Positions 3,966 through 59,893 of a DNA stretch of 64,000 nt are shown here, piece by piece. The DNA is taken from positions 1,813 through 65,812 of the forward strand of contig CALKWM010000020.1 in the NCBI GenBank assembly GCA_938004065.1. The letters are read 5' to 3'. Both the position numbers and the translations under genes were made by a program. The notes under the pieces were generated by a model, which made no database searches, was not told the DNA's origin, and saw nothing but the letters and a program-made list of their open reading frames with translations. Within the stretch, counting starts at the first letter, position 1, and each line of letters begins with the position of its first letter. The DNA comes from an uncultured bacterium. GTDB taxonomy: Bacteria; Patescibacteriota; JAHJAL01.

Positions 3966-4090
3966 TTTATTTTCTTAAGAAATAGAATGACACCATATTA
4001 CCCCTCATTAATTAAAAAAATCAAATTTTCTGTCCCTTTAAAACCACCAAAGGCCTGAAATTATCACAAGATAAAAAATTTATTTTCTAC

Positions 4091-4248
4091 AACGTGCCGC
4101 GGCTGATCCGATCGTGGCCAAAGGCCGCCGCAGGCGAGCCGATGGACATGTCGGATAGCCGCTGTTAGACGACGTCGCGGAGCGACGGAGGATAACGGGG
4201 GCGAAGCCGCGGCACGTTAGACAACGAGCGAAGCGATGTTGGCTAACG
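4091..4248 (+). repeat. GC-rich palindromic repeat module A, copy 1
   Basis: About 158 bp. Its ends, aacgtgccgcggct...agccgcggcacgtt, are perfect inverted complements. Internal hairpins include ggcc-aaa-ggcc, ccga-tggacatg-tcgg and cgacgtcg. It is visibly GC-rich against AT-rich surroundings. Confidence 0.85.
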
Positions 4249-4251
4249 TTT

Positions 4252-4388
4252 GCGTGTATGAGAAGTTTCGCCGACTTCCTTATTATTCATTATAGAGGAG
4301 GCGAAATTTGGGTGAAAGAAAAAGTGCAACCTTTGAAAATATTTAACGCACTTTTTCTTGAACCTCATACACGCTGTTATACGCTGTT
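4252..4388 (+). repeat. Structured repeat module B, copy 1 (always 3' of module A via a ggctaacgt junction)
   Basis: gcgtgtatgag...ctcatacacgc is a terminal inverted repeat. Inner stems are tttcgcc/ggcgaaa and aaaagtgc/gcactttt. Confidence 0.8.
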
Positions 4389-6536: not shown

Positions 6537-9500
6537 TTATTTTATTGAATTTTCTACAATTTCAATTTCCTCTGGCGTAAGTTCGTAGAGTTTATAAACA
6601 AGCTGATCAATTTGCGATTCAAGATTTTTAGTATCCGCGTCTTTATTTTGTTTTTTGAGAGTTAAAATTTGATCAACTAATTTTACTAATGAATCTTGTG
6701 ATTCCTGACTGTTACGAATAATAGGAATTTGTGACATAGAGCCATTTTTTTGAGCTAAAAAATATTTATATCCACCACCTGCGTCCTTACCCTCATTTTT
6801 ATACCAAAAATTTAAAAGCTTTGAATTTAAAATAGCGACAATGTATTTTAATGCTAAGTCTGAATTTTCTTTTTTTAATAAAACAGGAACATTACCCACG
6901 GTAAAATAATTATCATCATCATAACTAAAACGATTTTCATCTGAGCGATAAGGTGTTAAAATTTTTTCTTGTTCAAAAAATTCCTTTTTTCTTGGCCAAT
7001 TTATGCTATACCATGGTATCTTGCCACTAACGCACTCTCGTTTTTTTTCTAATAAAACACGATATTTTTCAAGGTGTTTTTTTATATTTGGATACTTTTC
7101 TATGTGATGATCTTTTGTTATATAAATTAAATAATGTCTTTTGCTTCTTCTATTGGTAGCAAATTTCTTTACTTCATCAGTTGTAATCCAATCTTTTATT
7201 AATTCCTTTTTTTCTTCCAAATTTGGGCTTATTTCTGTTAAATCATTTTCTGTTAAGATAAAAATGCCTTTATTGGCTTCCCAATTTTTATTATATTTTG
7301 TTGCCAAAGTATTTGTAACTTTATCCGCACCTGTAATTATCCCTTGTTTAATTTCACAATATTCTGAAATAGGTTTACCTTTTTTCTTAATTTTATTTAT
7401 TAAATCTAAAACATCGGAAGATTTTGCATTTTCTGCGGGGATATCAATAATTAAATCATTCCCTTTATATAATTGTTGTTGTTCGAGGGAAGCGTAAAGA
7501 GATTTTTTATCTGACCAATCAAAAATAGATCTAAGAATTTCCGAATCAGCAAAACCTTTATTTTGCGTGCTACATATATTCGCTAAAAAATTTTTATCTG
7601 TGTTTTTTTCTAAAATTGTTATTATATTATGTTGCCCTAGAGCTGATTTGAATATTTTTAAATCATTGAAATTGATCAACTTTTTTATTATAGTACGTTT
7701 TTTAAAATCTTCTCTCAAGATTTTTGCCCCATTGGAAGATAGATAATAATTTGTTGTTATAAAAGATAGTTGTCCACTTTCTTTTAACAAATTTAATGAT
7801 CTATGAAAAAAGAAGTAGAACAAATCCATTCTACGTTTGTAAAAATTACCAAGAGACCCCATTCTCACAATTCTAAATATTTCTTTATGTCCTTTTTCAC
7901 CAACATACGGTGGATTTCCTATCACAACATCAAAGGCTTGAACCCCGTGCATTAATTCCGGATCGTAAAATTCTGAAGATGAGCTAATATCAAACGGTTT
8001 ATAGCTTTTTAATTGCTGTGTTTTTTTGTTATCAAACAAACTAGCATTTTGCGTAAGCTTTAGATAATCCTTTTGCAATTTTTCTTTTTTTATTTTGCTA
8101 CTTGTTTTGAAATATTCATTCCGAATAGTTATCAATTTATCTTTTAGATCATGGTCGGTAAGAAATGTTGCTTGCTCAGTGTTATCAAGCGGAATAAGTG
8201 TGTTGGCGCAAACAAATTTAAACTCAAGGTTTGGCAATGGGTCAACCTTTTCACCTTCTGGAATATCCACAATTATTGAAAGCCAAGCTCGCAGACGAGT
8301 GATCTCAATGGCTGTTTGTTCAATATCCACACCATAAAGTGATCGTGATAAAATATCTCGTTTTAATCCCGAAATATCTTTTTCAAATTTTGGATCAAGG
8401 CGAGAATATACTTTCACGAGTAAATGAAGCATGCCCATCGGAAAAGCACCAGATCCAACCGCAGGATCAAGCACTGTGAGAGGAGATTCTGTTTTTGAGC
8501 CTTCAAGCGCTTTTATAATAGCTTCACGATACGGCTTCCAATCACGACGTTTATTTTGATCCTGATCACGGAATATTGCTTCAGGCATACGCACAAGCTC
8601 TTCTATACGACGATCACGATCTGGGGCTTCTGGAACTTTAGTCTTGAGATATTCAATCAAGGATTGCTCGCACATATAGCTCACGATTTCTCGCGGAGTA
8701 TAAAAAGCACCGGTGGCTTTCTTTTTGCTATTGCCCGTATTTTCGTCAATTTGCTCTGCAAGCAAACTCTCAAAAATACGCCCCAACATTTCAGGATCAA
8801 TAGCGACATGCTGGAATTCCGGACTACTTTCATCAACTGTAAAATTGTATTTATTTAAGGTTGTAAAAAGTTGATTAAAATAACCATTTGGAAAAGTTAG
8901 TTTTGGGTCGTTGAAAAAATCAGTCGTGTTTTTATCAAAAAGACCACCGTTCAAATAAGGAGTCAATTTATCGCCGTTATCTCTTTCTAGTTCTTCTCGA
9001 TTTAATACTTCAAAAAAAAGTTTTTCCAGTTGGTTTTTGTAGTATTCTGATTGTTTTTCCGGATCAATCACCGAAAAATAATTAACATTATTATTTACTA
9101 AATTTTTCTTTTTCAAAAACCAAATAAAAAGCAAACGTCCAATAAGTCTGGTCGTGAACATTACTGACTGTTTGCGTCCAAAATCTTTTTCAAGATGGTG
9201 TACTAAAATGCTAAAATGTTCAACCAATTCAAGGTAAAATTTGCGATTGATCGGTTCAAAGTTGAAGCTTTCCCAAAGTTTTGAGTGTAAAGTATTTTTT
9301 AATTCAGCCTGATCAGCAATCTCTAATTCGGAAAGTTTCGCCCATTGAGTAAATATTTCTAATTGGGTTGGGGTAATATGATCTTTTAATTCAAGAGCGC
9401 GAATCTTAAATCTATTAGAAAGCAAAACTATTATACTATCGCAGGTTTCTGGTACAACAAAATCAATCCCTATATTTTTATAATCATTTGAAAGTGCATC

Positions 9501-16364: not shown

Positions 16365-17354
16365 TTATTTTTTTATAAAAGTGTCAAGTAATAGCTTTTC
16401 AAACCGTTTTAATTCTTCCTTATGAAAAGTAAAAACATCCTCATAGGCTGTAACCATTCTTTTTAGATCGCCTTTTCTGACATACCAACCAACACCATCC
16501 ACAAAACCAATAAATTTCGCCTTTGGATAATGCGACTTGATAAGTGAATCAATAGAAATCTCTGTTTTTGATTTATCGCCTTGACCGGATGAAGTTGTTA
16601 CCAAAAATGAGCTTTCGGCAATAATTAACGGATTTTGTTTGTTCGGAATAATAAAATCCATCGTTCTTTTATTATCGGGGGCATTGTCAATTAGTTCGCT
16701 GAGGTCGCCCTTTTCAAACGGTATTTCTAAATGATTTAAAATTTCTTCAATTAAAATTTCCGGATTATTTTCTTTCATTCCGGAATAGCTGCCTTTTTCT
16801 TTATATCTAATTAAAGTGTCGATCATTTCCGGCAATTCAAATTTTAGTTTTGAAATACTTAGTTTCTTCAATTCAAATAGCGGAATAGTTTTTGTTAAAA
16901 ACGGAACTGTTGAACCTTCAAAGAAAATATTTAAAATTCCTTTTCTGAAAAATTCATTTTCTTTTATAAATTTTGCTATTTGAGCGTCTGACCACTCTTT
17001 CAGATTATTTATATCTTCATCCTTAAACCATTTGTCCTTATAAACCAACTTACTCAATTCTGGATCATTAACAACTCTAATAATTGTAGTCAATCTTTTT
17101 AAGGTTTCGTTTGAAAATCCGGTCAAAGCAAGCAACGCCCTAAGACCATTTTCTTTTTCAATTAGTAGCTGTTCAAAAAATTCCTTTTTCAATCCCTGTG
17201 TTTCAATATTATTTTTCAATATCAAAAGCATTTCTTTTAACGAGTTTAGATAACCTTCATATTTTTCTTCAAAAGCTGGATTGAAAAAATAAAAAGTATT
17301 TTTATCAATCACAGTTTTAAATTTCAATTCGGTTGTAGGTTTTGTGTATTTCAT
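16365..17354 (-). CDS. Hypothetical protein; candidate restriction endonuclease partner of the adjacent alpha-class MTase
   Basis: The 329-aa ORF sits 5 bp after the MTase stop and 2 bp before the DUF262 gene. It has a possible nuclease core MDFIIPNK...IIAESSF. No confident motif was found. Confidence 0.3.
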   Translation of the reverse strand: MKYTKPTTELKFKTVIDKNTFYFFNPAFEEKYEGYLNSLKEMLLILKNNIETQGLKKEFFEQLLIEKENGLRALLALTGFSNETLKRLTTIIRVVNDPELSKLVYKDKWFKDEDINNLKEWSDAQIAKFIKENEFFRKGILNIFFEGSTVPFLTKTIPLFELKKLSISKLKFELPEMIDTLIRYKEKGSYSGMKENNPEILIEEILNHLEIPFEKGDLSELIDNAPDNKRTMDFIIPNKQNPLIIAESSFLVTTSSGQGDKSKTEISIDSLIKSHYPKAKFIGFVDGVGWYVRKGDLKRMVTAYEDVFTFHKEELKRFEKLLLDTFIKK

Positions 17355-17359
17355 AATTG

Positions 17360-18610
17360 TTATTTTTGATTAGTAAAAAATAATATGGATTCCTCCTTCA
17401 TCGTATTTTGTAACCCCCGGATCGGCTTCTTTAAATTAAGTTCAAATTTTAGTCCTTGTTTTTCTCCAAGCTCAGTGACTTTTGTTTCCAGTCTCACGCC
17501 ATTTGTTTGAATATCGTTTGTGCCAATAATTATAACTATAGGCGCGTTTTTCTTTGATACCCGTTTCATTTCACCAAGGGCTTGATTCATTTTGTCAAAA
17601 TAAATTTCTAATTTATTTTCCACGCCTCGCCCCTGTAGGCCGATCATCTCTTGTCGCAAAACTTCCAGATCGTAGCCGAGATATTCTAATTGGGGCTGAT
17701 CATTTTTTAAATAATCAATAGCAAAAGAATAGGGCGGTGAAGTGATTACTGCGTCCACGCTATTATCACCAAGCGGCAAATTTAAAATACTACCTTGAAC
17801 GATTTTACTTTTTCCGATTTTTAAATCCATTTTTTTTCTTGCTTCTTGAAAATATTTTAACGTTGAAACATATCTGTCCAATACACGCGGGAAAAGTTTA
17901 TCAATAGAAGAACTGCTTCGGCCGGCAAATCCGACGGTATCTAAAAATGCTAATAAAATTATTTCATAGTAGTGTCTTTTTTTATCGTCTTTATTGTTTT
18001 TAAAATATTCTGGAACTTTGTCTTTTTTCAACTTATCCAAAATTTCTTTTGGATTTTTAATAATTGACTCTAAAATTTTAATATCCAAATTTAGAGCAAA
18101 TGTTTTAACTTTTCCCATTAGCTCACAAAATGGGCTTAAATCAACAGAGATAGCATCAATTCCGAGCAAATTAGCCTCAACTGCAACAGTAGAACTCCCG
18201 GCCATTGGATCAAGAACAACATGGCCGGGTTTTATATCAAGTATATTTAACAATGCCCTTATCAGTTGCGGGTGAAATTTTCCACGATATGGAAAAAGGC
18301 CATGAGTTGCGTATCCAGTTGAATATTTCCCGTCTAAAAAGAAAATTTTTGTCCGGAAAGAGCTATTTTTATGAACTTCTTCTAAATTTTGAAGGTTGCA
18401 AGTTTTATAATGAGCTGTTTCTTTCCCGTCAACTAATTTAAAATATGCGCTTCTTTCAACTAATTCTTTTTTTGATAAAACCTCATATTCCCACAAAGCT
18501 AAATCTAATTCAAAAATCTCATCAGTCCCGTCAATGAGATAAAAATTATTACCAAATAGCCTTTCTATGATCGGTTTATGCTTTGTAGTCATGATAGTAT
18601 TATAGTTCAT
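17360..18610 (-). CDS. Alpha-class N4/N6 DNA methyltransferase
   Basis: The motif I-like VVLDPMAGSSTVAVEA precedes AVITSPPYSFAIDY (motif IV) by about 150 aa. This is the I...TRD...IV order. Confidence 0.8.
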   Translation of the reverse strand: MNYNTIMTTKHKPIIERLFGNNFYLIDGTDEIFELDLALWEYEVLSKKELVERSAYFKLVDGKETAHYKTCNLQNLEEVHKNSSFRTKIFFLDGKYSTGYATHGLFPYRGKFHPQLIRALLNILDIKPGHVVLDPMAGSSTVAVEANLLGIDAISVDLSPFCELMGKVKTFALNLDIKILESIIKNPKEILDKLKKDKVPEYFKNNKDDKKRHYYEIILLAFLDTVGFAGRSSSSIDKLFPRVLDRYVSTLKYFQEARKKMDLKIGKSKIVQGSILNLPLGDNSVDAVITSPPYSFAIDYLKNDQPQLEYLGYDLEVLRQEMIGLQGRGVENKLEIYFDKMNQALGEMKRVSKKNAPIVIIIGTNDIQTNGVRLETKVTELGEKQGLKFELNLKKPIRGLQNTMKEESILFFTNQK

Positions 18611-18668: not shown

Positions 18669-18760
18669 TCTAATAAATAAAAAAACAAATTTATTCCCCT
18701 TTTTAAAAAGCCTGTCAAAATTCCTTATAAAAAGAAAAATATTTTTTGAATTGCGTATAA

Positions 18761-18916
18761 CGTGCCGCGGCTGATCCGATCGTGGCCAAAGGCCGCCGCA
18801 GGCGAGCCGATGGACATGTCGGATAGCCGCTGTTAGACGACGTCGCGGAGCGACGGAGGATAACGGGGGCGAAGCCGCGGCACGTTAGACAACGAGCGAA
18901 GCGATGTTGGCTAACG
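18761..18916 (+). repeat. GC-rich palindromic repeat module A, copy 2
   Basis: Identical over about 165 bp to copy 3 and nearly identical to copy 1. Same orientation. Confidence 0.85.
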
Positions 18917-18917
18917 T

Positions 18918-19056
18918 CCGCGTGTATGAGAAGTTTCGCCGACTTCCTTATCGTTTATTATAAAGGAGGCGAAATTTGGGTGAAAGAAAAAATGCAACCT
19001 TTAAAAATTATTAACGCACTTTTTCTTGAACCTCATACACTCTGTTATATGCTGTA
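18918..19056 (+). repeat. Structured repeat module B, copy 2
   Basis: About 95% identical to copy 1. Confidence 0.8.
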
Positions 19057-19379: not shown

Positions 19380-19544
19380 TTGCGTATAACGTGCCGCGGC
19401 TGATCCGATCGTGGCCAAAGGCCGCCGCAGGCGAGCCGATGGACATGTCGGATAGCCGCTGTTAGACGACGTCGCGGAGCGACGGAGGATAACGGGGGCG
19501 AAGCCGCGGCACGTTAGACAACGAGCGAAGCGATGTTGGCTAAC
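19380..19544 (+). repeat. GC-rich palindromic repeat module A, copy 3
   Basis: Same sequence as copy 2. It lies 110 bp upstream of the tyrosine recombinase gene. Confidence 0.85.
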
Positions 19545-19653
19545 TAGTATATATACGAAAAGTTTATCTTATAATATACTGAAAATAGTAGTGTATAAGT
19601 TTATCAAGTAAATATTTATTATTTATCTTAATTTTACATTTTTGTAATACTGT

Positions 19654-20466
19654 ATGCAAAAATATTTGGATTTAGCCAAAAGGGAATTGGAGATTAGAAA
19701 TTATAGTTCAAAGACTGTTGCAAGTTATTTAATTTCTTTGAAGAAATATTTTGAATTCAAGAAATTTGATTTCGGTGAATTTGATGAAAACAATTTGAAA
19801 GATTATTTATCGGTGCAAATAAAGCAAAAATTATCTCCTCAAACTATCAATCTCTCATTGAACGCTATTAAATTTTTTTACTATGAGATGATGGGGATAA
19901 AAACCAAGATCAATATTCGGAGTGTGAAAAAAGAACACAAATTACCGGTGGTTTTGTCCAAGGATGAAGTCAAACAAATTATCGATGTGATAAAAAATCC
20001 TAAACACAAATTGATGATTGCGCTCTCTTATAGTGCAGGTTTACGGGTGAGTGAAGTGATAGTGTTAAAAGTTGGAGATTTGGCGCTGGAAGAATTGATT
20101 GTGCATATTAGACAAGCAAAAGGCAAAAAAGACAGAATAAGTTTATTGCCGGAAAAGTTGGTGAATGATATTCGAAATATGATTGTTGGAAAATCTTCCC
20201 ATGATTTACTTTTTGTCAGTGAAAGAGGGGGTAAATTGACAACTAGATCGGCGCAAAAGATTTTTCAAAATGCTTTGCATAAATCCGGCATTAAAAAAGA
20301 AGCGACTTTTCATAGTCTTCGCCATAGTTTCGCGACGCATTTGTTGGAAAATGGTGTTGATGTGCGTTATGTTCAGGAGCTATTGGGCCACGCCAATATT
20401 AGAACAACTCAGATATATACTCATGTTACCAATCCGGCGATTAGAAATATTAAAAGTCCCTTATGA
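19654..20466 (+). CDS. Tyrosine site-specific recombinase (Xer/integrase family)
   Basis: The C-terminal catalytic region reads HSLRHSFATHLLENGVDVRYVQELLGHANIRTTQIYTHV, i.e. R..H-x-x-R...Y. The N-terminus has a SAM-like core-binding region. The stop codon lies inside a 46-bp repeat core. Confidence 0.85.
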   Translation: MQKYLDLAKRELEIRNYSSKTVASYLISLKKYFEFKKFDFGEFDENNLKDYLSVQIKQKLSPQTINLSLNAIKFFYYEMMGIKTKINIRSVKKEHKLPVVLSKDEVKQIIDVIKNPKHKLMIALSYSAGLRVSEVIVLKVGDLALEELIVHIRQAKGKKDRISLLPEKLVNDIRNMIVGKSSHDLLFVSERGGKLTTRSAQKIFQNALHKSGIKKEATFHSLRHSFATHLLENGVDVRYVQELLGHANIRTTQIYTHVTNPAIRNIKSPL

Positions 20467-20600: not shown

Positions 20601-21779
20601 TTATCTTATATCACCGCCCCAGATGTAGTCATCAAATTTGGGAACGTTTTTTCTGCCAATCAGATGGTATTTCTTGATGCCGGCTAAATTTGACAATTTG
20701 GATAATTTGGTTAGATCGTTTTTTGTTGGTGATTCTTTTAATTCTAGAGATACTTTTTTATCCAAGATAAAATCTATCTCATTTCCATTTTTCAATGCAT
20801 AGTAGCGGATATCACCAAAGTGCCGGATCTGATTAAAAAAGGCATTTTCAAATTTTGAACCGCTGTTATTTTCCGATAGAATATTTAATAGTCCATTGTC
20901 GCAAAAATATACTTTTTTTGCTTTTACTATTTCGCGATCAAAGTTATGTGTATGAACGGGCACACGATAAATTAAATAGGTTTTTTCGAAAAATTCCAGA
21001 TATTCTTCAACTGTGTGACGTGATAGATTGGTCAATCTAGCTAGTTTGTTATAATCAAGGCGAGTACCTACTCTTGAAGCAAGCATTTTGATTAAGCTGA
21101 AAATTTCTTTATCTTTACGAAAATCAGAAAGTGATTTGATATCGATATTTACATAAGAACTAATAATATCGTTTAATAATTCTTTTTTTAAATCTTTTTT
21201 CTTGGTTAATACAACTTCGGGAAATCCGCCGAAATTGATGAATTCTTCATAGTAGAATTTTAGTCTTTCATATTCAAATTCAGAGAAATTTTTAGCAAAA
21301 GATTTTTTCTCTTGGTGATAGATTTCTTTGAAGGTTAAAAATTCGCCAAAATCCAAGGGGAACATATCAAAAACAATCTTTCTACCGGCAAGAGATTGGG
21401 TAAAAAGATTTTTAAGATAATATGAACTGGAGCCGGTAACCAAAAATTTAATGTTATGGTGGTCGTAAAGATATTTTATAATACTAGTGATGTTTGGTAA
21501 AAACTGGATTTCGTCGATGGCCAGATAAATTTTCTTTTTTGGATCTATTCCCATCCGGGCAAGATCTAGTAAGATATTGTCATAATTTTTTTGGTCAAAA
21601 ATACCTCGGTCAGACAATTTTTCCAAATCGAAATATGCCTTATTTTCGGATTTAATTTCTGATAAAAGTTGTTTTAATATAGTAGTTTTACCGACTCGTC
21701 TAATACCAGTTATTACAATTACCTGTTTTGCACTAATGTATTTCTGAATTTTTTGGTAGATTTTTCGTGGAAATATCAT
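20601..21779 (-). CDS. AAA+ ATPase of the AAA_14/DUF4143 family
   Basis: Walker A motif VITGIRRVGKTT is present. The length and organisation are typical of AAA_14 + DUF4143 proteins. Confidence 0.7.
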   Translation of the reverse strand: MIFPRKIYQKIQKYISAKQVIVITGIRRVGKTTILKQLLSEIKSENKAYFDLEKLSDRGIFDQKNYDNILLDLARMGIDPKKKIYLAIDEIQFLPNITSIIKYLYDHHNIKFLVTGSSSYYLKNLFTQSLAGRKIVFDMFPLDFGEFLTFKEIYHQEKKSFAKNFSEFEYERLKFYYEEFINFGGFPEVVLTKKKDLKKELLNDIISSYVNIDIKSLSDFRKDKEIFSLIKMLASRVGTRLDYNKLARLTNLSRHTVEEYLEFFEKTYLIYRVPVHTHNFDREIVKAKKVYFCDNGLLNILSENNSGSKFENAFFNQIRHFGDIRYYALKNGNEIDFILDKKVSLELKESPTKNDLTKLSKLSNLAGIKKYHLIGRKNVPKFDDYIWGGDIR

Positions 21780-23925: not shown

Positions 23926-24013
23926 CGGAGGGGGAGGGATTCGAACCCCCGAGGAACACAAGGCCCCTAACAGTTTTCAAGACTGCCGCATTCAACCGCT
24001 CTGCCACCCCTCC
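23926..24013 (-). tRNA. tRNA-Ser (anticodon UGA)
   Basis: The reverse complement reads GGAGGGGTGGCAGAGCGGTTGAATGCGGCAGTCTTGAAAACTGT...GGGGGTTCGAATCCCTCCCCCTCCG. It has a 7-bp acceptor stem and a GGTTCGAAT T-loop. The anticodon loop CTTGAAA gives UGA, and the long variable arm marks a class II tRNA. Confidence 0.85.
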
Positions 24014-27905: not shown

Positions 27906-28544
27906 ATGTGTGGAAGATTTAGTATAAAATCGGATCGAGAATATATCGAGCATAGATTTAAGGCAGGTTTTTGTGAGAAATTTCGTCCCAACTCGAATGC
28001 ATCTCCGGGTCAAATTTTGCCGGTAATAAAGTCAGATACACCAAGTGAAATTAATTTTTTGAAATGGGGTTTGAGTCCCGCTTGGTACAAAAAGATGAAA
28101 GGAGAGAGTGCGGGGCTTATCAATGTGCGGGATGATAATTTGAAATTGAAAAGAACTTTCGAAAAGGATTTACTGGATAGACGATGTCTGGTCTTGGCCG
28201 ATGGTTTTTATGAATGGAAAAAAGTTGATGATAAAAAAGTTCCCTACAGATTTGCAATGGGTGGGGATGAATTGTTTGCAATGGCCGGTATATGGGGAGA
28301 AAATGTGGATAAACGTGGGGAAAAGATTTTGACGTTTGCGATAGTTACGACCGAAGCCAATAGTGATGTGAAGGAAATCCACAATCGAATGCCGGTGATT
28401 TTGGAGCCGGAGCAAGAACAAATCTGGCTTGCAAAAAGTGAAAAAAATAGCTATTTGAGTTTGTTGGATCCATTGCCACCTGGCATATTGGAGGGGAAGG
28501 TGGTTGGTAAAGTAATAAATATGCGCCCAAGGCGCACCAGATGA
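27906..28544 (+). CDS. SOS-response-associated peptidase (SRAP/YedK, DUF159)
   Basis: The N-terminal MCGRF, with catalytic Cys2, and the downstream conserved core are present. Confidence 0.85.
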   Translation: MCGRFSIKSDREYIEHRFKAGFCEKFRPNSNASPGQILPVIKSDTPSEINFLKWGLSPAWYKKMKGESAGLINVRDDNLKLKRTFEKDLLDRRCLVLADGFYEWKKVDDKKVPYRFAMGGDELFAMAGIWGENVDKRGEKILTFAIVTTEANSDVKEIHNRMPVILEPEQEQIWLAKSEKNSYLSLLDPLPPGILEGKVVGKVINMRPRRTR

Positions 28545-56725: not shown

Positions 56726-56870
56726 GTAAATTAAATAAAGTATCAAGTATCAAGGATCAAGGATCCCAGCCCAAGGATGGTCCGCCTAGGGCGGAAAGTA
56801 TGGAGTCGCTAAAGCGACTATTATAAAATAGGCAGGAAAAAAGCCATCGGATGTTTTGACGGCTTTTTTT

Positions 56871-57503: not shown

Positions 57504-57695
57504 TTTTTCGACCTCCTTAAAAATGATTGTAGGTAGATAATAGCATAGAGAAAAAAATTGTTCAATTCTTTTTTTCAATCCGTGTTTTGGTGTATAATGA
57601 TATTTGGGGCAAATTAAGAAATAAGAAGTAAGAAATAAGTAAAAAGTAAATCAATTTTTTCTTAGTTCTTATTTCTTGTTTCTTGCTTCTTTTCT

Positions 57696-57753
57696 GGAGG
57701 GTTGGCTTAAGTGGTCGCCTCTTCGGCGACCTGCCGATGAGGCAGGTTGAAAG
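57696..57753 (+). pseudogene. 5' fragment of tRNA-Ser(GCU), about the first 26 nt, interrupted by a 31-nt twin-hairpin insert
   Basis: GGAGGGTTGGCTtAAGTGGT-[cgcctcttcggcgacctgccgatgaggcagg]-TTGAAAG compares with the intact GGAGGGTTGGCTGAGTGGTTGAAAGC at 58022. Confidence 0.6.
57710..57750 (+). repeat. 41-bp twin-hairpin direct repeat, copy 1
   Basis: agtGGTCGCC-tcttc-GGCGACC then ACCTGCC-gatga-GGCAGGT, followed by tga. Two 7-bp stems share the ACC. Confidence 0.75.
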
Positions 57754-57767
57754 TATTATATTAAAAA

Positions 57768-58043
57768 ATGTATTATACATATGTGCTTATAAGTAAAGGT
57801 GATGGTAGATTGTATATTGGTAGTACTTCAAATTTAAAAAGACGTTTTGAGGAACATAATAAAGGTTTAAATAAATCTACTAAAAATAGAAGGCCTTTTA
57901 AATTGATTTACTATGAGGCCTATATTTTAAAAAAAGATGCAACTAAGGCGGAAATGTTCTTTAAAAGTGGTTATGGAAGAGAAGTATTAAAAGGTAAGCT
58001 TAGTTATTTTTACCAATCTATGGAGGGTTGGCTGAGTGGTTGA
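57768..58043 (+). CDS. GIY-YIG nuclease-domain protein (small stand-alone URI domain)
   Basis: YTYVLISKGDGRLYIGSTSNLKRRFEEHN is the GIY-YIG motif pair. The last 22 nt including the stop overlap the 5' end of tRNA-Ser. Confidence 0.75.
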   Translation: MYYTYVLISKGDGRLYIGSTSNLKRRFEEHNKGLNKSTKNRRPFKLIYYEAYILKKDATKAEMFFKSGYGREVLKGKLSYFYQSMEGWLSG

Positions 58044-58110
58044 AAGCAGCGGCTTGCTAAGCCGTACTAGGGATTTTTCCTTAGCGGAGGTTCAAATCCT
58101 CCACCCTCCG
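58022..58110 (+). tRNA. tRNA-Ser (anticodon GCU)
   Basis: GGAGGGTTGGCTGAGTGGTTGAAAGCAGCGGCTTGCTAAGCCGT...GGAGGTTCAAATCCTCCACCCTCCG has an acceptor stem of GGAGGGT/ACCCTCC. The anticodon loop TTGCTAA gives GCU, and there is a long variable arm. Confidence 0.85.
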
Positions 58111-58184
58111 TTTTGCAAGCGATAAGCAATAAGCTTTGGGCGGTAAGTTTACAAAGATCAATTTATTTTGGTTTTTTTTGAAAA

Positions 58185-58225
58185 AGTGGTTGCCTCTTCG
58201 GCGACCTGCCGATGAGGCAGGTTGA
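58185..58225 (+). repeat. 41-bp twin-hairpin direct repeat, copy 2
   Basis: Identical except for one base (C to T). Together the copies bracket the GIY-YIG gene and tRNA-Ser. Confidence 0.75.
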
Positions 58226-58230
58226 TTATG

Positions 58231-58256
58231 AAAACACACTTATAAAGTGTGTTTTT
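58231..58256 (+). terminator. Intrinsic terminator
   Basis: AAACACAC-ttataa-GTGTGTTTTT. A near-identical terminator at 59829-59855 follows a tRNA 3' remnant. Confidence 0.6.
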
Positions 58257-58394
58257 GCTATTGACTTGTGTATTAGTAGAGCTATAATTGCGGTGGTTCT
58301 TTAAAATGTTGTTTTAAGATATTACGAATAGGAGGGATTATCAATAGATACTGGAGAATATGGTATCGAATTCTCCAAAGAAGACTTTGAATGG

Positions 58395-58898
58395 ATGTTT
58401 GAATTTTACGATAAAAATCGTAAAGACTTGTTTATGGGAGTAAAGAAAAAATCGTTTCAAAAGGTCGAAAATATTCATATTGAAACGGTTGCAAGAGATC
58501 TAAAGGACTTGATAAGTAGATATTTTTGCTACTTATACAATGATTATTGCTGGAGAGACGAAAATATTAGATTTAAGGATGGCATGGATAGAGCCATTCA
58601 GATATTAGAGGAGGCAAAAAAATTCATTTTGGCCTTTTTTCCAGAGGCGCTCATCAAAGGTGGATTTTGTGGTTATTTTTACACCTCAGGTGGGCCAACT
58701 GCTGTAAATGGCTGGGGAGATTGTTCATATGATGTTATAAAAATAAAACGAGCTCTTCATATGATTGATGATGCTATAGTAGAGATCAAATGCGGTTATG
58801 TGCATATCGGTGAAGGTGATTTTTACGATAAAACCTCTTTAGAATACAGGTTAAGCAGTTCGTTGGATCCACAGGGCTTAAGATTCTCACTATTTTAA
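58395..58898 (+). CDS. Hypothetical protein
   Basis: A 167-aa ORF. Confidence 0.4.
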   Translation: MFEFYDKNRKDLFMGVKKKSFQKVENIHIETVARDLKDLISRYFCYLYNDYCWRDENIRFKDGMDRAIQILEEAKKFILAFFPEALIKGGFCGYFYTSGGPTAVNGWGDCSYDVIKIKRALHMIDDAIVEIKCGYVHIGEGDFYDKTSLEYRLSSSLDPQGLRFSLF

Positions 58899-59151
58899 AA
58901 ACAAGTTTATAGCTTGGTTAACATAGATTAATCAATCTTTCTTTATATCCAATTTCTTAGTAATAAATCTATTTGAGAAGTTCTAATTTCATTACTCCTT
59001 GTTTATATGGGGAGTTATAATTAGAGATAATGTTTATTTAGATGTTGATGAAAATATAATATTTGTAAATACTCTTGTAAATAGTGTTATAATGCGATAT
59101 TGTATTGTAGTAAATTAAAAAACAATCAGATATGAGGGGAGATGAGATGAA

Positions 59152-59667
59152 GTGGATTTTAGTGTTAGAAGTTTGACGGAAAAATTGATTGGAGATTATG
59201 AGATATATTACAAGTTAGAGAAAAAAATACCATTCGGTTCCAAATTTTTACGTCGAGCAGGATCGGAAAATTCTCGTTTGGTTTCATGTTTTCCGGAATT
59301 AATGCAGAAAGCAATGAAGTTGGATTATCGACCGAGAAGGTTTACATTTTATTCAGCAGTTGAAGCTATATGGGAGAAAAAAATGGTACGTAGAAATCAA
59401 AAGGATTTGTTTCTTGTGGCATTAATGGAATTGAGGAAGACGTGGCGGATATGGGCTCCATTGAGGGAAGAAGATCGAATGATGTATGAGAGGTCGGTAA
59501 GAGATTTTGATAATTGGCTGGATATGGAGAAAAAGAAACAGGTTCTGGATGAAAATATTGAGAAAAATAGAGAATGTGTGGATATTGACAGAGTGGTAAA
59601 AATGGGAAGTGTTAAATATAGAGTTAAGGGGTCTTTTCAAATAGACTTGATAATATCGATATTGTAA
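59152..59667 (+). CDS. Hypothetical protein
   Basis: A 171-aa ORF. Confidence 0.4.
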   Translation: MDFSVRSLTEKLIGDYEIYYKLEKKIPFGSKFLRRAGSENSRLVSCFPELMQKAMKLDYRPRRFTFYSAVEAIWEKKMVRRNQKDLFLVALMELRKTWRIWAPLREEDRMMYERSVRDFDNWLDMEKKKQVLDENIEKNRECVDIDRVVKMGSVKYRVKGSFQIDLIISIL

Positions 59668-59783
59668 ATAAATAAATTTTTAAATGTTATAGAATTTAAG
59701 GTTAGTTGATGAAAATTGACTAACTATTTTTTATGCTCTATTTTCAAGTGGTATTTTTGCTATGTTGATTCTAATAGGATTTT

Positions 59784-59796
59784 CTACCACCCTCCG
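59784..59796 (+). other. Remnant of a tRNA-Ser 3' end, att-like
   Basis: ctaccaccctccgtttt matches the 3' end of tRNA-Ser(GCU) at 58098-58114. It is followed by the same taag-rich motif and terminator as the intact tRNA. Confidence 0.5.
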
Positions 59797-59893
59797 TTTT
59801 TGTAAGTAGTAAGTAATAAGTAATAAGTAAAACACGTTTATGATGCGTGTTTTTGTGATATGATGTGAGTATGAAATTTAACAAATTGAGGAG

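Follow-up and report, generated by a model that had tools for sequence, protein, structure and literature searches.

A small selfish cassette, composed of a minimal GIY-YIG nuclease gene (the ORF) and a complete tRNA gene, probably lies nested inside a tRNA-Ser(GCU) gene of an uncultured patescibacterial genome, where it would have replaced the resident copy. The locus was analysed within a single stretch of 64,000 nucleotides, termed the window, and against a comparison set of ~200 related loci. In the window, the 3' part of the interrupted gene (part C) is nearly all missing, and nesting is argued there by analogy with other loci and from a 10-nt tRNA end and its flank. No published description of nested GIY-YIG and tRNA cassettes was found in a literature search that covered few subscription journals and is thus weak evidence.

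Architecture of the tRNA-Ser Locus

Table 1. Features assigned to the tRNA-Ser(GCU) locus, in window positions.
Feature	Position	Strand	Basis or remark
GTGTATAATG box, likely promoter	57590-57599	+	TATAAT at 57593-57598; common to cassette-free allele L208
AT-rich imperfect inverted repeat	57616-57691	+	35-nt arms; repeat search; between promoter and part A
Part A, putative 5' half of dead resident tRNA-Ser gene	57696-57753	+	tRNA positions 1-20, insert, resumed D-arm
Left 42-nt repeat copy	57709-57750	+	AAGTGGT + twin hairpin + TTGA
GIY-YIG nuclease gene	57768-58043	+	91 aa; Pfam PF01541
Part B, intact tRNA-Ser(GCU)	58022-58110 (Rfam, 63.8 bits); 58021-58111 (ARAGORN)	+	
Putative start of part C, right 42-nt repeat copy	58184-58225	+	after tRNA B
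Stem-loop and T run, AAAACACAC-TTATAAA-GTGTGTTTT	58231-58256	+	12-bp stem, fold
Extra segment, 1,686 bp	58115-59800	+	missing from L001, L002 and L208 (blastn against the window)
Orphan ORFs in extra segment	58395-58898; 59152-59667		
Putative end of part C, last 10 nt of resident tRNA-Ser, CCACCCTCCG	59787-59796	+	resident 3' flank and terminator next

The GTGTATAATG box, whose counterpart in L208 reads gtgtataatgg (L208 41-51), probably served the resident tRNA locus as promoter, and it now stands 5' of part A, the ORF and tRNA B; the consensus promoter scan made no call at this box, because the -35 region is weak. The left arm of the inverted repeat between the box and part A resembles in alignment the AAG/ATAAG-rich 3' flank of the tRNA-Ser gene, and no Rfam family matched the repeat at gathering score. 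The fold of 57607-57756 gave z = -8.5.

Part A carries positions 1-20 of the tRNA (GGAGGGTTGGCTTAAGTGGT, 57696-57715), which are split in the D-loop by a 31-nt twin-hairpin insert (CGCCTCTTCGGCGACCTGCCGATGAGGCAGG, 57716-57746) before the D-arm resumes with TTGAAAG (57747-57753), as a previous sequence-only reading had described. The distance of 72 nt to the ORF given by that reading holds for the start of the fragment, whereas its end lies just 14 nt before the ATG. The fragment had been taken for a duplicate of the functional tRNA, and it appears instead to represent the 5' half of the resident gene that was displaced. The direct repeat does occur twice as claimed, but it spans 42 nt rather than 41, and its copies are not identical, differing by one C>T change that preserves a G.U pair. 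A 30-nt core of this repeat was found in exactly 2 copies in the 64-kb window with 3 mismatches allowed, compared with 0 in 100 shuffles. At the right-hand copy, the remnant assigned to the resident gene is reduced to AAGTGGT from the D-loop, followed by the twin hairpin and then TTGA, and its position matches that of the class-C hairpins following an intact tRNA in L119, L106, L098, L131, L004, L139 and L157.

The intact tRNA B is identical to the tRNA-Ser of L208. Its 3' flank (58111-58183) is diverged, being ~70% alike, as judged by eye in an alignment, to the resident flank that runs from 59797 on; it is read as a diverged copy of the resident flank, and B would therefore have been imported together with it; tRNA B is interpreted as the cargo of the cassette. 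The stem-loop and T run downstream look like the terminator of an A-ORF-B transcript, and the consensus terminator scan gave no call there, because the stem has few G-C pairs.

The extra segment is bounded by a 14-nt repeat, CCACCCTCCGTTTT (58101-58114 and 59787-59800), and contains the imported flank of B, part C, a promoter-like site (58261-58288, matching at 11/12 positions) and two orphan ORFs. Neither ORF had a match in Pfam or NCBIfam, and the homologue search with the 167-aa ORF returned only itself. The sequence from 59797 on matches at 97-99% the sequence directly 3' of the tRNA in L001, L002 and L208, while 59747-59786 may be a decayed variable-arm/T-arm remnant, the resemblance being only suggestive.

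The GIY-YIG Nuclease

The protein encoded by the ORF matched PF01541 over residues 1-70 in the Pfam profile search (E=1.5e-17, 64.1 bits, cutoff 22.6). The conserved core comprises ~84 aa, and the final 7 codons extend into tRNA-Ser, so that the TGA at 58041-58043 serves as stop codon and at the same time belongs to the D-loop of the tRNA. The ORF overlaps an intact tRNA-Ser(GCU), as reported earlier and borne out by ARAGORN, Rfam and Pfam, and this overlap amounts to 22-23 nt. A homologue search found 627 relatives, the greater part 81-90 aa long and of patescibacterial origin, covering query residues 1-78; those listed measure 78-123 aa, the majority 81-95 aa. Among 41 homologues, residues Y3/Y5, Y16, G18, R26, H30, N31 and E50 show either no variation or a conservation of at least 90%, and family membership suggests that they have catalytic roles, including those of the Tyr of GIY, the Tyr of YIG, the Arg, the His/Tyr and the metal-binding Glu. 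The fold was assigned from Pfam and from sequence matches to solved structures, of which the nearest are the UPF0213 proteins 1ywl and 1zg2 (E=1.7e-7). The Pfam search found neither a second domain nor a C-terminal DNA-binding module, and the NCBIfam group-I-intron endonuclease model scored 26 bits only against a cutoff of 56. Blastn of 57600-58300 against a phage collection gave no match. The single-copy, fixed-position pattern of a UPF0213 housekeeping gene was not observed, inasmuch as L208 lacks the gene and the family occurs elsewhere in multiple copies at varied targets, with at least two copies in several genomes.

Strain Polymorphism

The allele comparison proposed by the sequence-only reading could be made, since a tRNA-Ser locus without the nuclease gene was found in L208. 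The window, L208, L001 and L002 come from near-identical strains, and a 117-aa neighbour protein is 100% identical across them. L208 has the promoter, the tRNA and the flank without the cassette, the alleles L001 and L002 contain the ORF with the tRNA but not the flanking pieces, and the window has the full A-ORF-B-C structure. Together with the recurrence of the same architecture at many tRNAs, these alleles uphold the idea of a mobile GIY-YIG cassette at a tRNA gene. The same tRNA-Ser-GCU and the same layout are found at the syntenic locus of the relative L211 (75% RNase J identity), and the layout recurs at a tRNA-Ser-UGA in L003, with a nuclease 72% identical. The cassette at this locus may be old and mostly vertically inherited, as it is also present in the fairly distant L211. 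The contigs of the closest relative by RNase J, P0126 (84% identical), stop right after the RNase J gene.

Recurrence of the Nested Design

A same-strand tRNA gene starting within ~300 nt downstream of the ORF stop, mostly within ~100 nt, was found at 32 of 80 loci of nuclease relatives, and 12 tRNA identities were represented (Gln, His, Met, Gly, Ser, Lys, Val, Arg, Thr, Phe, Asp and Leu). A copy of positions 1..k of the same tRNA precedes the ATG in at least 24 of the 34 loci with a downstream tRNA; these copies are split by a GC-rich hairpin and then resume for 4-12 nt. The construction occurs in many phyla-level lineages, the order is tRNA-ORF instead in L007, L008 and L017, and the nest-and-replace layout is also seen at protein-coding targets (L059, L033 and L034). 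The target range is consequently far wider than the tRNA-Ser formerly proposed, embracing at least 12 tRNA identities in addition to protein-coding genes.

The evidence for nesting comes from the acceptor strands. In L119, those of A and C read TACGGGA/TCCCGTA, as against TGCGGGA/TCCCGCA in B, and in L004 they read TGGGGTA/TACCCCA, as against TGGGAGA/TCTCCCA in B; the acceptor of A likewise pairs with the 3' end of C rather than that of B in L157, L139, L093, L094 and L127. An automated scan located the reverse complement of A(1-7) 3' of B in 7 of the 26 loci in which A differs from B, where chance would give ~0.5. The acceptor strands of A and C pair with each other and not with B, which argues that the cassette is nested in, and replaces, a resident tRNA gene; by this complementarity, A and C are read as the two halves of what was once a single tRNA gene. 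The idea that the outer tRNA is still functional, as a split or intron-containing gene, was set aside, the C copies being truncated or decayed in most loci.

The two hairpin copies had been ascribed to an element that struck twice with a preference for agtggt|tga. They share 7 + 4 nt of D-loop flank, and an A/C hairpin pair brackets the GIY-YIG gene and tRNA in L119, L106, L004, L139, L157, L098 and L131; because of the same bracketing in these seven other loci, they are considered the duplicated borders of one nested insertion. The border repeat measures 42 nt here, ~44 nt in L119 and ~56 nt in L106. Such variability speaks against a staggered cut of constant length, and a fixed target-site duplication was set aside on the same ground. 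In versions without the ORF, the inner tRNA is bounded by another inverted repeat, CCCCGCACC...GGTGCGGGG, with the twin hairpin standing apart in the D-loop, and the twin hairpin is therefore not always the cassette border.

The Twin Hairpin and Alternative Explanations

Each hairpin of the twin element consists of inverted 6-bp arms around a 5-nt spacer, and perfect GC-rich 6-bp hairpins number 10 in the 35% GC window where 0.18 are expected. Such arms, together with the hairpin-containing direct repeats that flank the ORF and tRNA, would suit a miniature integrative element that moves as a circle through site-specific recombination by a host recombinase at an att-like twin hairpin, with the GIY-YIG gene as cargo (e.g., toxin, defence or DNA repair). 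The variable extension of the repeat into the tRNA would also be expected if both partners had hairpin-bearing tRNA pieces. Nevertheless, no recombinase lies in or beside the cassette, the hairpin would have to reside in the resident tRNA, as a dead gene, before the cassette arrived, and the ORF-less nested tRNAs have other borders, so that we regard this explanation as unlikely.

The distribution of the twin hairpin bears on a second explanation, namely that it is an independent MITE/REP-like element inserted twice at agtggt|tga beside an unrelated GIY-YIG gene. The 33-nt twin hairpin is indeed short, non-coding and multi-copy, being present in at least 120 metagenome stretches, and its conserved hairpins occur in varied contexts: ~40% of the examined copies have neither tRNA nor GIY-YIG gene within 900 nt, and some appear to lie in coding sequence. 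AG-TC usually precedes the copies, whose flanks are usually AG-TC...GG-(G/A)A, and no clear target-site duplication was seen. Against this stand the 7 + 4 nt that the window copies share as one 42-nt repeat, the like bracketing in at least seven other loci, and the sequence 5' of the second copy, which is not tRNA-like beyond AAGTGGT. Moreover, a GIY-YIG gene starts on the same strand within ~65 nt downstream of 22 of 84 copies, and 19-28 of these 84 copies, between roughly one quarter and one third, are linked to the family in fixed position and orientation. Hairpins of class A have the GIY-YIG gene at +37..+305 and the tRNA at ~+300..+400, while in class C an intact tRNA ends ~20 nt before the hairpin. 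The hairpin type also co-varies with the nuclease subfamily: nearest-neighbour nucleases agree in their type of upstream element in 73 of 100 cases, where chance would give a fraction of 0.28, and share the twin-hairpin type in 25 of 29. An independent hairpin is thus decidedly unlikely. The sequence-only reading had named two circumstances that would jointly undermine it, and only one was encountered: metagenomes do contain many hairpin copies in unrelated contexts, but the position of the GIY-YIG gene at this locus is not a fixed one.

Covariation supports the twin-hairpin fold; it counts for the nested cassette and would also suit a functional RNA. Over 80 distinct 33-mers from other genomes (143 copies), whose counts are not phylogenetically independent, pairs 2-16, 19-31 and 20-30 show double compensatory changes, and 97% of the pairs are paired versus 86.5% in shuffles, the observed value being reached in 0 of 1000 shuffles. 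One long hairpin, with a 13-bp stem that is perfect in L021, was also considered for the conserved fold and rejected, since its variable pairs do not covary (0.66 paired versus 0.71 in shuffles); a diversity-generating retroelement, considered for 300-nt GC-rich repeats, was likewise rejected, the mismatches not being adenine-specific. The tRNA 5' fragment and hairpins might form an RNA leader, a tRNA mimic or processing signal for GIY-YIG expression or tRNA maturation in a stable operon, as would fit the stable fold (z = -3 to -8), the location of the fragment within the 5' untranslated region, 14 nt from the ATG, and the architecture kept at the same locus in L211. A leader of this kind leaves unexplained part C, the pairing of the A and C acceptors, which is distinct from that of B, the imported flank, the strain polymorphism and the same layout at protein-coding targets. 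The wobble-type mismatches of the 33-mers (8 G.T versus 6 C.A) have no strand bias, and Rfam 15 returned nothing credible at 57696-57753 and 58184-58225 even at E<=1, the tRNA alone reaching gathering score. The leader is hence very improbable. Other Rfam matches at E<=1 were weak miRNA or plastid chance matches.

That a local tandem tRNA duplication decayed around a UPF0213-type housekeeping gene placed there by chance is scarcely credible, for although tRNA genes do duplicate in tandem and UPF0213 proteins, whose function is unknown, are the nearest relatives with solved structures, the order is nested rather than tandem, the flank of B has diverged from the resident flank, the same construction recurs at at least 12 tRNA identities in many phyla-level lineages, several genomes hold multiple copies, and L208 lacks the gene.

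Proposed Origin and Maintenance of the Cassette

According to the nested-cassette explanation, which these observations favour, sequence comparison indicates that the resident gene for tRNA-Ser(GCU) was split within the D-loop, and that its 5' part A and its 3' end at 59787-59796, with the original flank, now bracket the insert. The latter consists of the minimal GIY-YIG gene, a whole tRNA-Ser (B) as replacement, followed by a diverged 3' flank of its own, and the border repeat, in which a handful of D-loop bases adjoin the 33-nt twin hairpin and which occurs in A as well as in C. Part A, the ORF and B would be transcribed from the old tRNA promoter, and RNase P would then cut the tRNA off the nuclease mRNA, at whose 3' end it lies. 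Since the ORF overlaps the sole functional tRNA-Ser(GCU) at this locus, the nuclease gene is not easily lost by the host unless the tRNA goes with it.

As to the mode of movement, we infer homing-like recombination: nuclease-stimulated gene conversion would carry the cassette into the cognate tRNA gene of other genomes, with the strong conservation of tRNA sequence providing homology on both sides. The twin hairpin would be a sequence- and structure-specific site travelling with the nuclease gene, most likely the recognition site of the nuclease, and would at the same time break up the homology between A and B, leaving stretches too short for deletion of the ORF by recombination; solo hairpins elsewhere would be non-autonomous copies or scars. 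It counts against homing that the putative nuclease is a ~84-aa catalytic domain alone, without a DNA-binding domain. Furthermore, tRNA B keeps the D-loop of the naive gene, and simple sequence-specific homing would therefore cut the donor too.

A more far-reaching proposal, which we advance tentatively and consider possible rather than probable, is that of an unrecognised class of bacterial mobile elements, in which a minimal 85-aa GIY-YIG enzyme recognises the 33-nt twin-hairpin DNA and mobilises both autonomous cassettes, made up of the nuclease gene with a replacement for the essential target gene, and non-autonomous solo hairpins, host dependence arising as the resident tRNA gene is killed and its sole working copy supplied. 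RAYT enzymes and REP elements offer a parallel for the relation of enzyme to solo hairpins. If true, it would represent the first case in bacteria of structure-directed insertion based on a GIY-YIG enzyme, and the class would be a major shaper of tRNA loci in Patescibacteria.

If the nested-cassette explanation is correct, it bears on the frequent annotation of small GIY-YIG genes beside tRNA genes in Patescibacteria and other uncultured bacteria, and on the tRNA fragments and pseudo-tRNAs riddled with GC-rich hairpins found there. A selfish gene would persist in a tiny streamlined genome by fusion to the sole working copy of an essential tRNA, and tRNA annotation as well as tRNA-based island detection in these genomes must allow for nested and dead copies. 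The 84-aa nuclease and the defined 33-nt twin hairpin also form a candidate pair for biochemistry, which could reveal a mechanism of structure-directed DNA insertion or homing by a very small protein.

Comparison with Known Systems

Characterised GIY-YIG homing endonucleases of the I-TevI/Seg type combine a catalytic domain with a C-terminal DNA-binding module. The cassette resembles them in its presence/absence polymorphism at a conserved target (L208 versus L001, L002 and the window), and its protein differs in having no such module. With UPF0213/YhbQ-type proteins, which belong to the Slx1-like cluster, it shares the size and the GIY-YIG core as the only domain; unlike those proteins, which are treated as housekeeping and are of unknown function, the cassette family is multi-copy, polymorphic and situated in disrupted targets. 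A fusion with a TrmH-like methyltransferase of tRNA G18, in the D-loop, has been described for the Slx1-like cluster, and a link to RNA metabolism was suggested (PMC1564403).

As in tRNA-targeting integrative elements, a tRNA gene is the site of insertion, direct repeats of tRNA sequence stand on both sides, and tRNA function is supplied by the insert itself: D-loop bases are part of the 42-nt repeat, and intact tRNA B lies inside. Phages and ICEs use tRNA genes as att sites, usually at the 3' end, by means of an integrase. Unlike them, the cassette occupies the D-loop and 5' half, brings a complete second tRNA and leaves the resident gene dead in two pieces; no integrase or recombinase was found between the repeats, where the GIY-YIG gene is the only ORF, and the integrase at 19654-20466 lies 37 kb off.

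REP and Rickettsia palindromic elements are GC-rich palindromic mobile repeats. Further examples are Allomyces mitochondrial double-hairpin elements, yeast mitochondrial GC clusters and Neurospora PstI palindromes flanking tRNA genes (Paquin 2000 and others, cited in PMC2800124 and PMC3787672). Like these repeats, the twin hairpin is short and GC-rich, is formed of two adjacent hairpins in AT-rich genomes, is multi-copy and polymorphic, and occurs in intergenic, RNA-gene and apparently coding contexts. It differs in that 19-28 of 84 copies are tied to one nuclease family, and no sequence relation is expected.

SegB of phage T4 is a GIY-YIG homing endonuclease in a tRNA gene cluster, which cleaves the tRNA-gene region of a related genome and thereby favours inheritance of its own (PMC2330249). 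The cassette is similarly a GIY-YIG gene among or at tRNA genes, whereas SegB is a two-domain phage protein of more than 200 aa, without nesting in a dead tRNA, a tRNA 5' fragment or hairpin repeats.

Some free-standing homing-endonuclease genes bring with them a replacement piece of their target gene. In Allomyces, a mobile mitochondrial endonuclease ORF reportedly makes a gene hybrid of atp6 and leaves the displaced gene fragment as a pseudogene. Mobile endonuclease ORFs creating 'gene hybrids', with the displaced fragment as a pseudogene, are also described for Glomus mitochondria (cited in PMC3787672). Unlike these fungal ORFs, the cassette targets a bacterial tRNA gene and carries a whole tRNA rather than a gene end, its protein is a catalytic core of ~84 aa, a twin hairpin marks its borders, and homing is here something that we infer. 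Like them, it places an ORF in a conserved gene with neither intron nor intein, is polymorphic between close relatives, and rescues function by an element-borne copy while the displaced fragment stays beside it.

Organization of the locus

The GIY-YIG ORF and the intact tRNA-Ser(GCU) gene (termed B) constitute a cassette that is nested in a former tRNA gene, and the elements listed by the sequence-only reading were all recovered from the window. The ORF terminates at the D-loop TGA of the tRNA gene, which gives an ORF/tRNA overlap of 22-23 nt. Upstream lies piece A, the 5' part of the dead resident tRNA gene, in which a GC-rich insert separates the tRNA 5' end from a few resumed tRNA bases. 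The hairpin core has just two copies in the window with three mismatches allowed and none in shuffled sequences, while perfect GC-rich hairpins, small in number (10), are approximately 50 times commoner in the window than in shuffles. In addition, an AT-rich inverted repeat ahead of A has a left arm similar to the AAG/ATAAG-rich sequence 3' of the tRNA-Ser gene, suggestive of a tRNA flank duplicated to a position before A.

Features of the tRNA-Ser(GCU) locus and of other parts of the window
Feature	Position	Remarks
AT-rich inverted repeat	57616-57691	35-nt arms; between promoter box and A
tRNA-Ser 5'-end copy, GGAGGGTTGGCTTAAGTGGT	57696-57715	one base extra
GC-rich 31-nt insert	57716-57746	after the 5'-end copy
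TTGAAAG, resumed tRNA bases	57747-57753	14 nt ahead of the ATG
42-nt direct repeat (AAGTGGT, hairpins, TTGA)	57709-57750 and 58184-58225	one mismatch
GIY-YIG ORF, 91 aa	57768-58043	PF01541, E=1.5e-17
Intact tRNA-Ser(GCU) (B)	58021/58022-58110/58111	ARAGORN and Rfam, 63.8 bits
Diverged flank version	58111-58183	
Orphan ORF, 167 aa	58395-58898	own promoter-like site; inside the dead tRNA copy's remains
Orphan ORF, 171 aa	59152-59667	as for the 167-aa ORF
tRNA-Ser last 10 nt, CCACCCTCCG	59787-59796	joined to resident flank
Hairpin TGCGCC-CAA-GGCGCA	28522-28536	solo, GC-rich, at a gene end
Hairpin TCCGCC-TAG-GGCGGA	56781-56795	solo, GC-rich, at a gene end
DpnII-like gene	16365-17354	
DNA methylase gene	17360-18610	
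Tyrosine recombinase gene	19654-20466	at the GC-skew switch
AAA-ATPase gene	20601-21779	
tRNA-Ser(UGA)	23926-24013	minus strand
~300-nt repeat, copies 1, 2 and 3	4088-4387, 18756-19055, 19385-19684	~51% GC
Direct-repeat pairs, 91-122 nt	20461-20582/21920-22041; 13285-13378/18598-18691; 5387-5477/13624-13714	84% identical

Polymorphism among strains

As the sequence-only reading had proposed, the tRNA-Ser locus was compared with and without the GIY-YIG gene, and close strains, all with 100% identity in the 117-aa protein encoded downstream, displayed three locus states. The window itself belongs to a Patescibacteria assembly, ERZ724101 NODE_192, also available as GCA_036848155.1. In strain L208, which has no GIY-YIG gene, the same GTGTATAATG box is found together with a tRNA identical to B and the resident flank with its terminator, and the 165-nt leader is unrelated to that of the window and has no Rfam match. 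In strains L001 and L002, the ORF (99% identical) is joined to the tRNA and directly followed by the resident flank; both part from the window sequence exactly after TTGAAAG, their contigs ending 55-60 nt further upstream. The window itself shows the order A-ORF-B, a diverged flank version and the second hairpin copy, and only 1.56 kb further on do the last bases of tRNA-Ser join the resident flank. The resident tRNA has been replaced by that of the cassette.

The extra segment of the window (1,686 bp) is bounded by the 14-nt repeat CCACCCTCCGTTTT and contains, besides two orphan ORFs that are absent from L001, L002 and L208, a strong promoter-like site and a hairpin resembling a terminator. 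Neither ORF has a Pfam or NCBIfam match, and a homologue search with the 167-aa ORF retrieved itself only. AAGTGGT is common to A and to the piece past B (termed C), whereas B and L208 carry GAGTGGT, which marks the second hairpin copy as the beginning of what is left of the displaced resident gene; the earlier notion that the hairpin had struck twice is thus abandoned.

The same kind of cassette occupies tRNA-Ser(GCU) in L211, a more distant, syntenic relative (RNase J 75% identical), with a different twin hairpin (TGCGCCCTAGGCGCA CCCGCCTTGGGCGGG) and a nuclease only 43% identical. The first GIY-YIG ORF of L211 (8547-8800) is missing from the gene calls, and a second, divergent one (80 aa, 9127-9369) was noticed 230 nt downstream of the cassette.

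The same architecture at other loci

A survey of 80 genomic loci encoding nuclease relatives revealed a same-strand tRNA starting within about 300 nt of the ORF stop, mostly within about 100 nt, in 32, with 12 tRNA identities represented. Genomes of roughly 1 Mb carry about 45 tRNA genes, so that such adjacency would be expected by chance in less than 1% of cases. When the window and L003 are taken in, at least 24 of the 34 ORF-tRNA loci harbor positions 1 to k of their own tRNA in the 60-140 nt ahead of the ATG, where k, mostly 18-23, places the break in the D-loop; next come an insert of 17-86 nt with a GC-rich hairpin and 4-12 further tRNA bases. The nuclease of L003, 72% identical to that of the window, adjoins a different serine tRNA (UGA), and its upstream fragment fits that tRNA, with compensatory T-A to C-G changes in both hairpins. 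Mirror versions, with the tRNA before the ORF, were found in L007, L008 and L017. Protein-coding targets were also encountered in L059, L033 and L034, the first of which comprises the 5' fragment of an epimerase-like gene, a GC hairpin, the ORF and the intact version of that gene with a different N-terminus.

The nesting is documented by piece C, a 5'-truncated and often decayed tRNA copy past B with the hairpin again in its D-loop (L119, L106, L098, L131, L004, L139 and L157). The acceptor strands of A and C are mutually complementary, and compensating changes set them apart from B, as in L119 (A TACGGGA, C TCCCGTA; B TGCGGGA/TCCCGCA) and L004 (A TGGGGTA, C TACCCCA; B TGGGAGA/TCTCCCA), and likewise in L157, L139, L093, L094 and L127. 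A and C thus belong together, and the ORF and B must have entered a pre-existing tRNA gene with the same identity as B. In 7 of the 26 loci where A differs from B, an automated scan detected A(1-7) in reverse complement no more than 330 nt past B, against about 0.5 by chance; the scan is noisy, as some of its "A" calls are neighbouring tRNA genes.

ORF-less nested tRNAs, in which an intact tRNA resides inside a dead tRNA of the same identity, were observed in L093, L094, L127 and L140. They are bordered by CCCCGCACC...GGTGCGGGG, the intact tRNA lying between the inverted repeat CCCCGCACC(T)TTTT...AAAAGGTGCGGGG near the anticodon loop of the dead tRNA, which also bears the twin hairpin, set apart in its D-loop. 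Such arrangements could represent cassettes that are non-autonomous or that have lost their ORF.

Tandem units were seen as well, namely an 82-nt unit (tRNA-Arg 5' fragment, hairpin, spacer) occurring twice ahead of the intact tRNA (L161, 946-1057), a second tRNA-Gln fragment with hairpin after the GIY-YIG ORF (L037) and two hairpins side by side (L142, 1-82), possibly through repeated insertion at a regenerated site. Dead tRNA copies before or after the intact tRNA in L004, L106, L116 and L026 gain additional GC-rich hairpins, and these are specific to loops (anticodon loop, T-loop); L026 has a hairpin that occupies the loop of a second one.

The twin-hairpin element

Further hairpin copies, which the sequence-only reading had suggested seeking with their flanks, were found by a degenerate-pattern scan in at least 120 metagenome stretches; the unit is approximately 33 nt long (consensus GTCGCCTCATCGGCGACCCGCCGAAGAGGCGGG). 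Across 80 distinct 33-mers (143 copies), covariation is evident at pairs 2-16 (T-A 70, C-G 8), 19-31 (C-G 58, T-A 18) and 20-30 (G-C 69, A-T 6). These are 97% paired versus 86.5% after column shuffling, the observed value being reached in 0 of 1000 shuffles, with the reservation that the copies are related and the events not independent. The alternative fold into a single long hairpin showed no covariation and was rejected. Wobble-type mismatches have no strand bias, so that DNA-level and RNA-level roles are not separable.

Among the 84 copies in the 80 loci listed, 19-22 precede a GIY-YIG ORF at +37 to +65, with a tRNA (Gln, Gly or Pro) beyond it, about 15 sit in a tRNA 5' fragment with an intact tRNA within 20-125 nt and no ORF between, and about 11 lie some 20 nt past an intact tRNA. 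About 35 have neither tRNA nor GIY-YIG within 900 nt, and the many solo copies are a difficulty for the mechanism proposed below. The arms of the two solo hairpins of the window recur in hairpin inserts of other cassettes (L211, L012); the two may be solo single-hairpin elements or terminators.

The nuclease family

Detectable homologues of the nuclease number 627, mostly of 81-90 aa and from Patescibacteria, and they match residues 1-78 only, indicating that the tail reading into the tRNA is not conserved. Among solved structures, the nearest relatives are those of UPF0213 proteins (1ywl, E=1.7e-7), and SLX1 is weakly similar, for which reason a structure-specific rather than sequence-specific enzyme is plausible. 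As a lead only, Slx1-like GIY-YIG domains are fused to a TrmH-type tRNA G18 (D-loop) methyltransferase (PMC1564403). Moreover, the nuclease subfamily co-varies with the upstream element type, the nearest neighbour being of the same type in 73 of 100 cases (chance expectation 0.28).

In a second subfamily, a conserved TTCACCCYGTKAAATAATTTTAAAT precedes the ORF at about positions 1470-1500 of the loci (L018, L023, L028, L030-L032, L035, L038, L039, L041, L044, L048, L050, L053, L056, L058, L061, L063, L065, L067, L070, L071, L073 and L075-L079), and its proteins are mutual nearest neighbours (21/21). Its reverse complement follows the stop codon in L032, L033, L065, L076 and L077, resembling a terminal inverted repeat. 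Many of these ORFs lie at the SNIAEG motif within a gene for a four-helix-bundle protein similar to 23S rRNA intervening-sequence proteins.

The left part of the window

GC skew runs from about 0 to -0.13 up to ~18 kb and then, unusually strongly, from +0.15 to +0.47 to the window end. The low-skew part holds the DNA methylase and DpnII-like genes and two ORFs of more than 1000 aa. The change in skew probably reflects an integrated island or the boundary of an inversion. A long, imperfect palindrome (ACGTGCCGCGGCT...AGCCGCGGCACGT) is part of the ~300-nt repeat, which adjoins the recombinase gene; identity is 96% between copies 1 and 2 and about 67% for copy 3. The mismatches of the repeat are not adenine-specific, so that it is no DGR template/variable pair, and it may be a recombination site, attC-like or of another kind. 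Three shorter direct-repeat pairs also occur here, some flanking the AAA-ATPase gene.

Proposed mechanism

Transcription would start at the old tRNA promoter, and the tRNA would be processed out of the mRNA 3' end. Nuclease-stimulated recombination may carry the cassette into other genomes, at the cognate gene, which is highly conserved, with the hairpin as the putative recognition site of the nuclease. The hairpin would also split the A/B homology into pieces of at most 20 nt; efficient RecA recombination generally needs roughly 23-27 bp, so that the ORF would be shielded from deletion. The host would effectively depend on the cassette, because the sole working tRNA overlaps the ORF. Difficulties are that B retains the naive D-loop, donor immunity to its own nuclease being unaccounted for by the mechanism, that border-repeat length varies between loci and that the nuclease has no DNA-binding domain.

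Overall, a nested selfish cassette is regarded as a reasonably probable reading, with its anatomy held more firmly than its mode of movement. The mobile cassette of the sequence-only reading is retained, without the double hairpin strike.

Comparison with known systems

In the literature searched, the coverage of which is incomplete, no description was found of GIY-YIG and tRNA cassettes nested in dead tRNA genes or of this twin-hairpin family. In these bacteria, rRNA genes are known to carry non-intron insertions with GIY-YIG ORFs (PMC11270868). The cassette is rated a homing-type selfish cassette with target replacement, with a genuine possibility that the pairing of hairpin and nuclease represents something more novel than that. 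A close analogue is provided by mitochondrial free-standing endonuclease ORFs, which deliver a substitute piece of the gene, with hybrids or pseudogene fragments as the result (PMC3787672). The closest analogues also include T4 SegB, located in the phage tRNA cluster (PMC2330249), tRNA-targeting integrative elements, and double-hairpin elements and other GC-rich palindromic repeats (PMC2800124 and PMC3787672).
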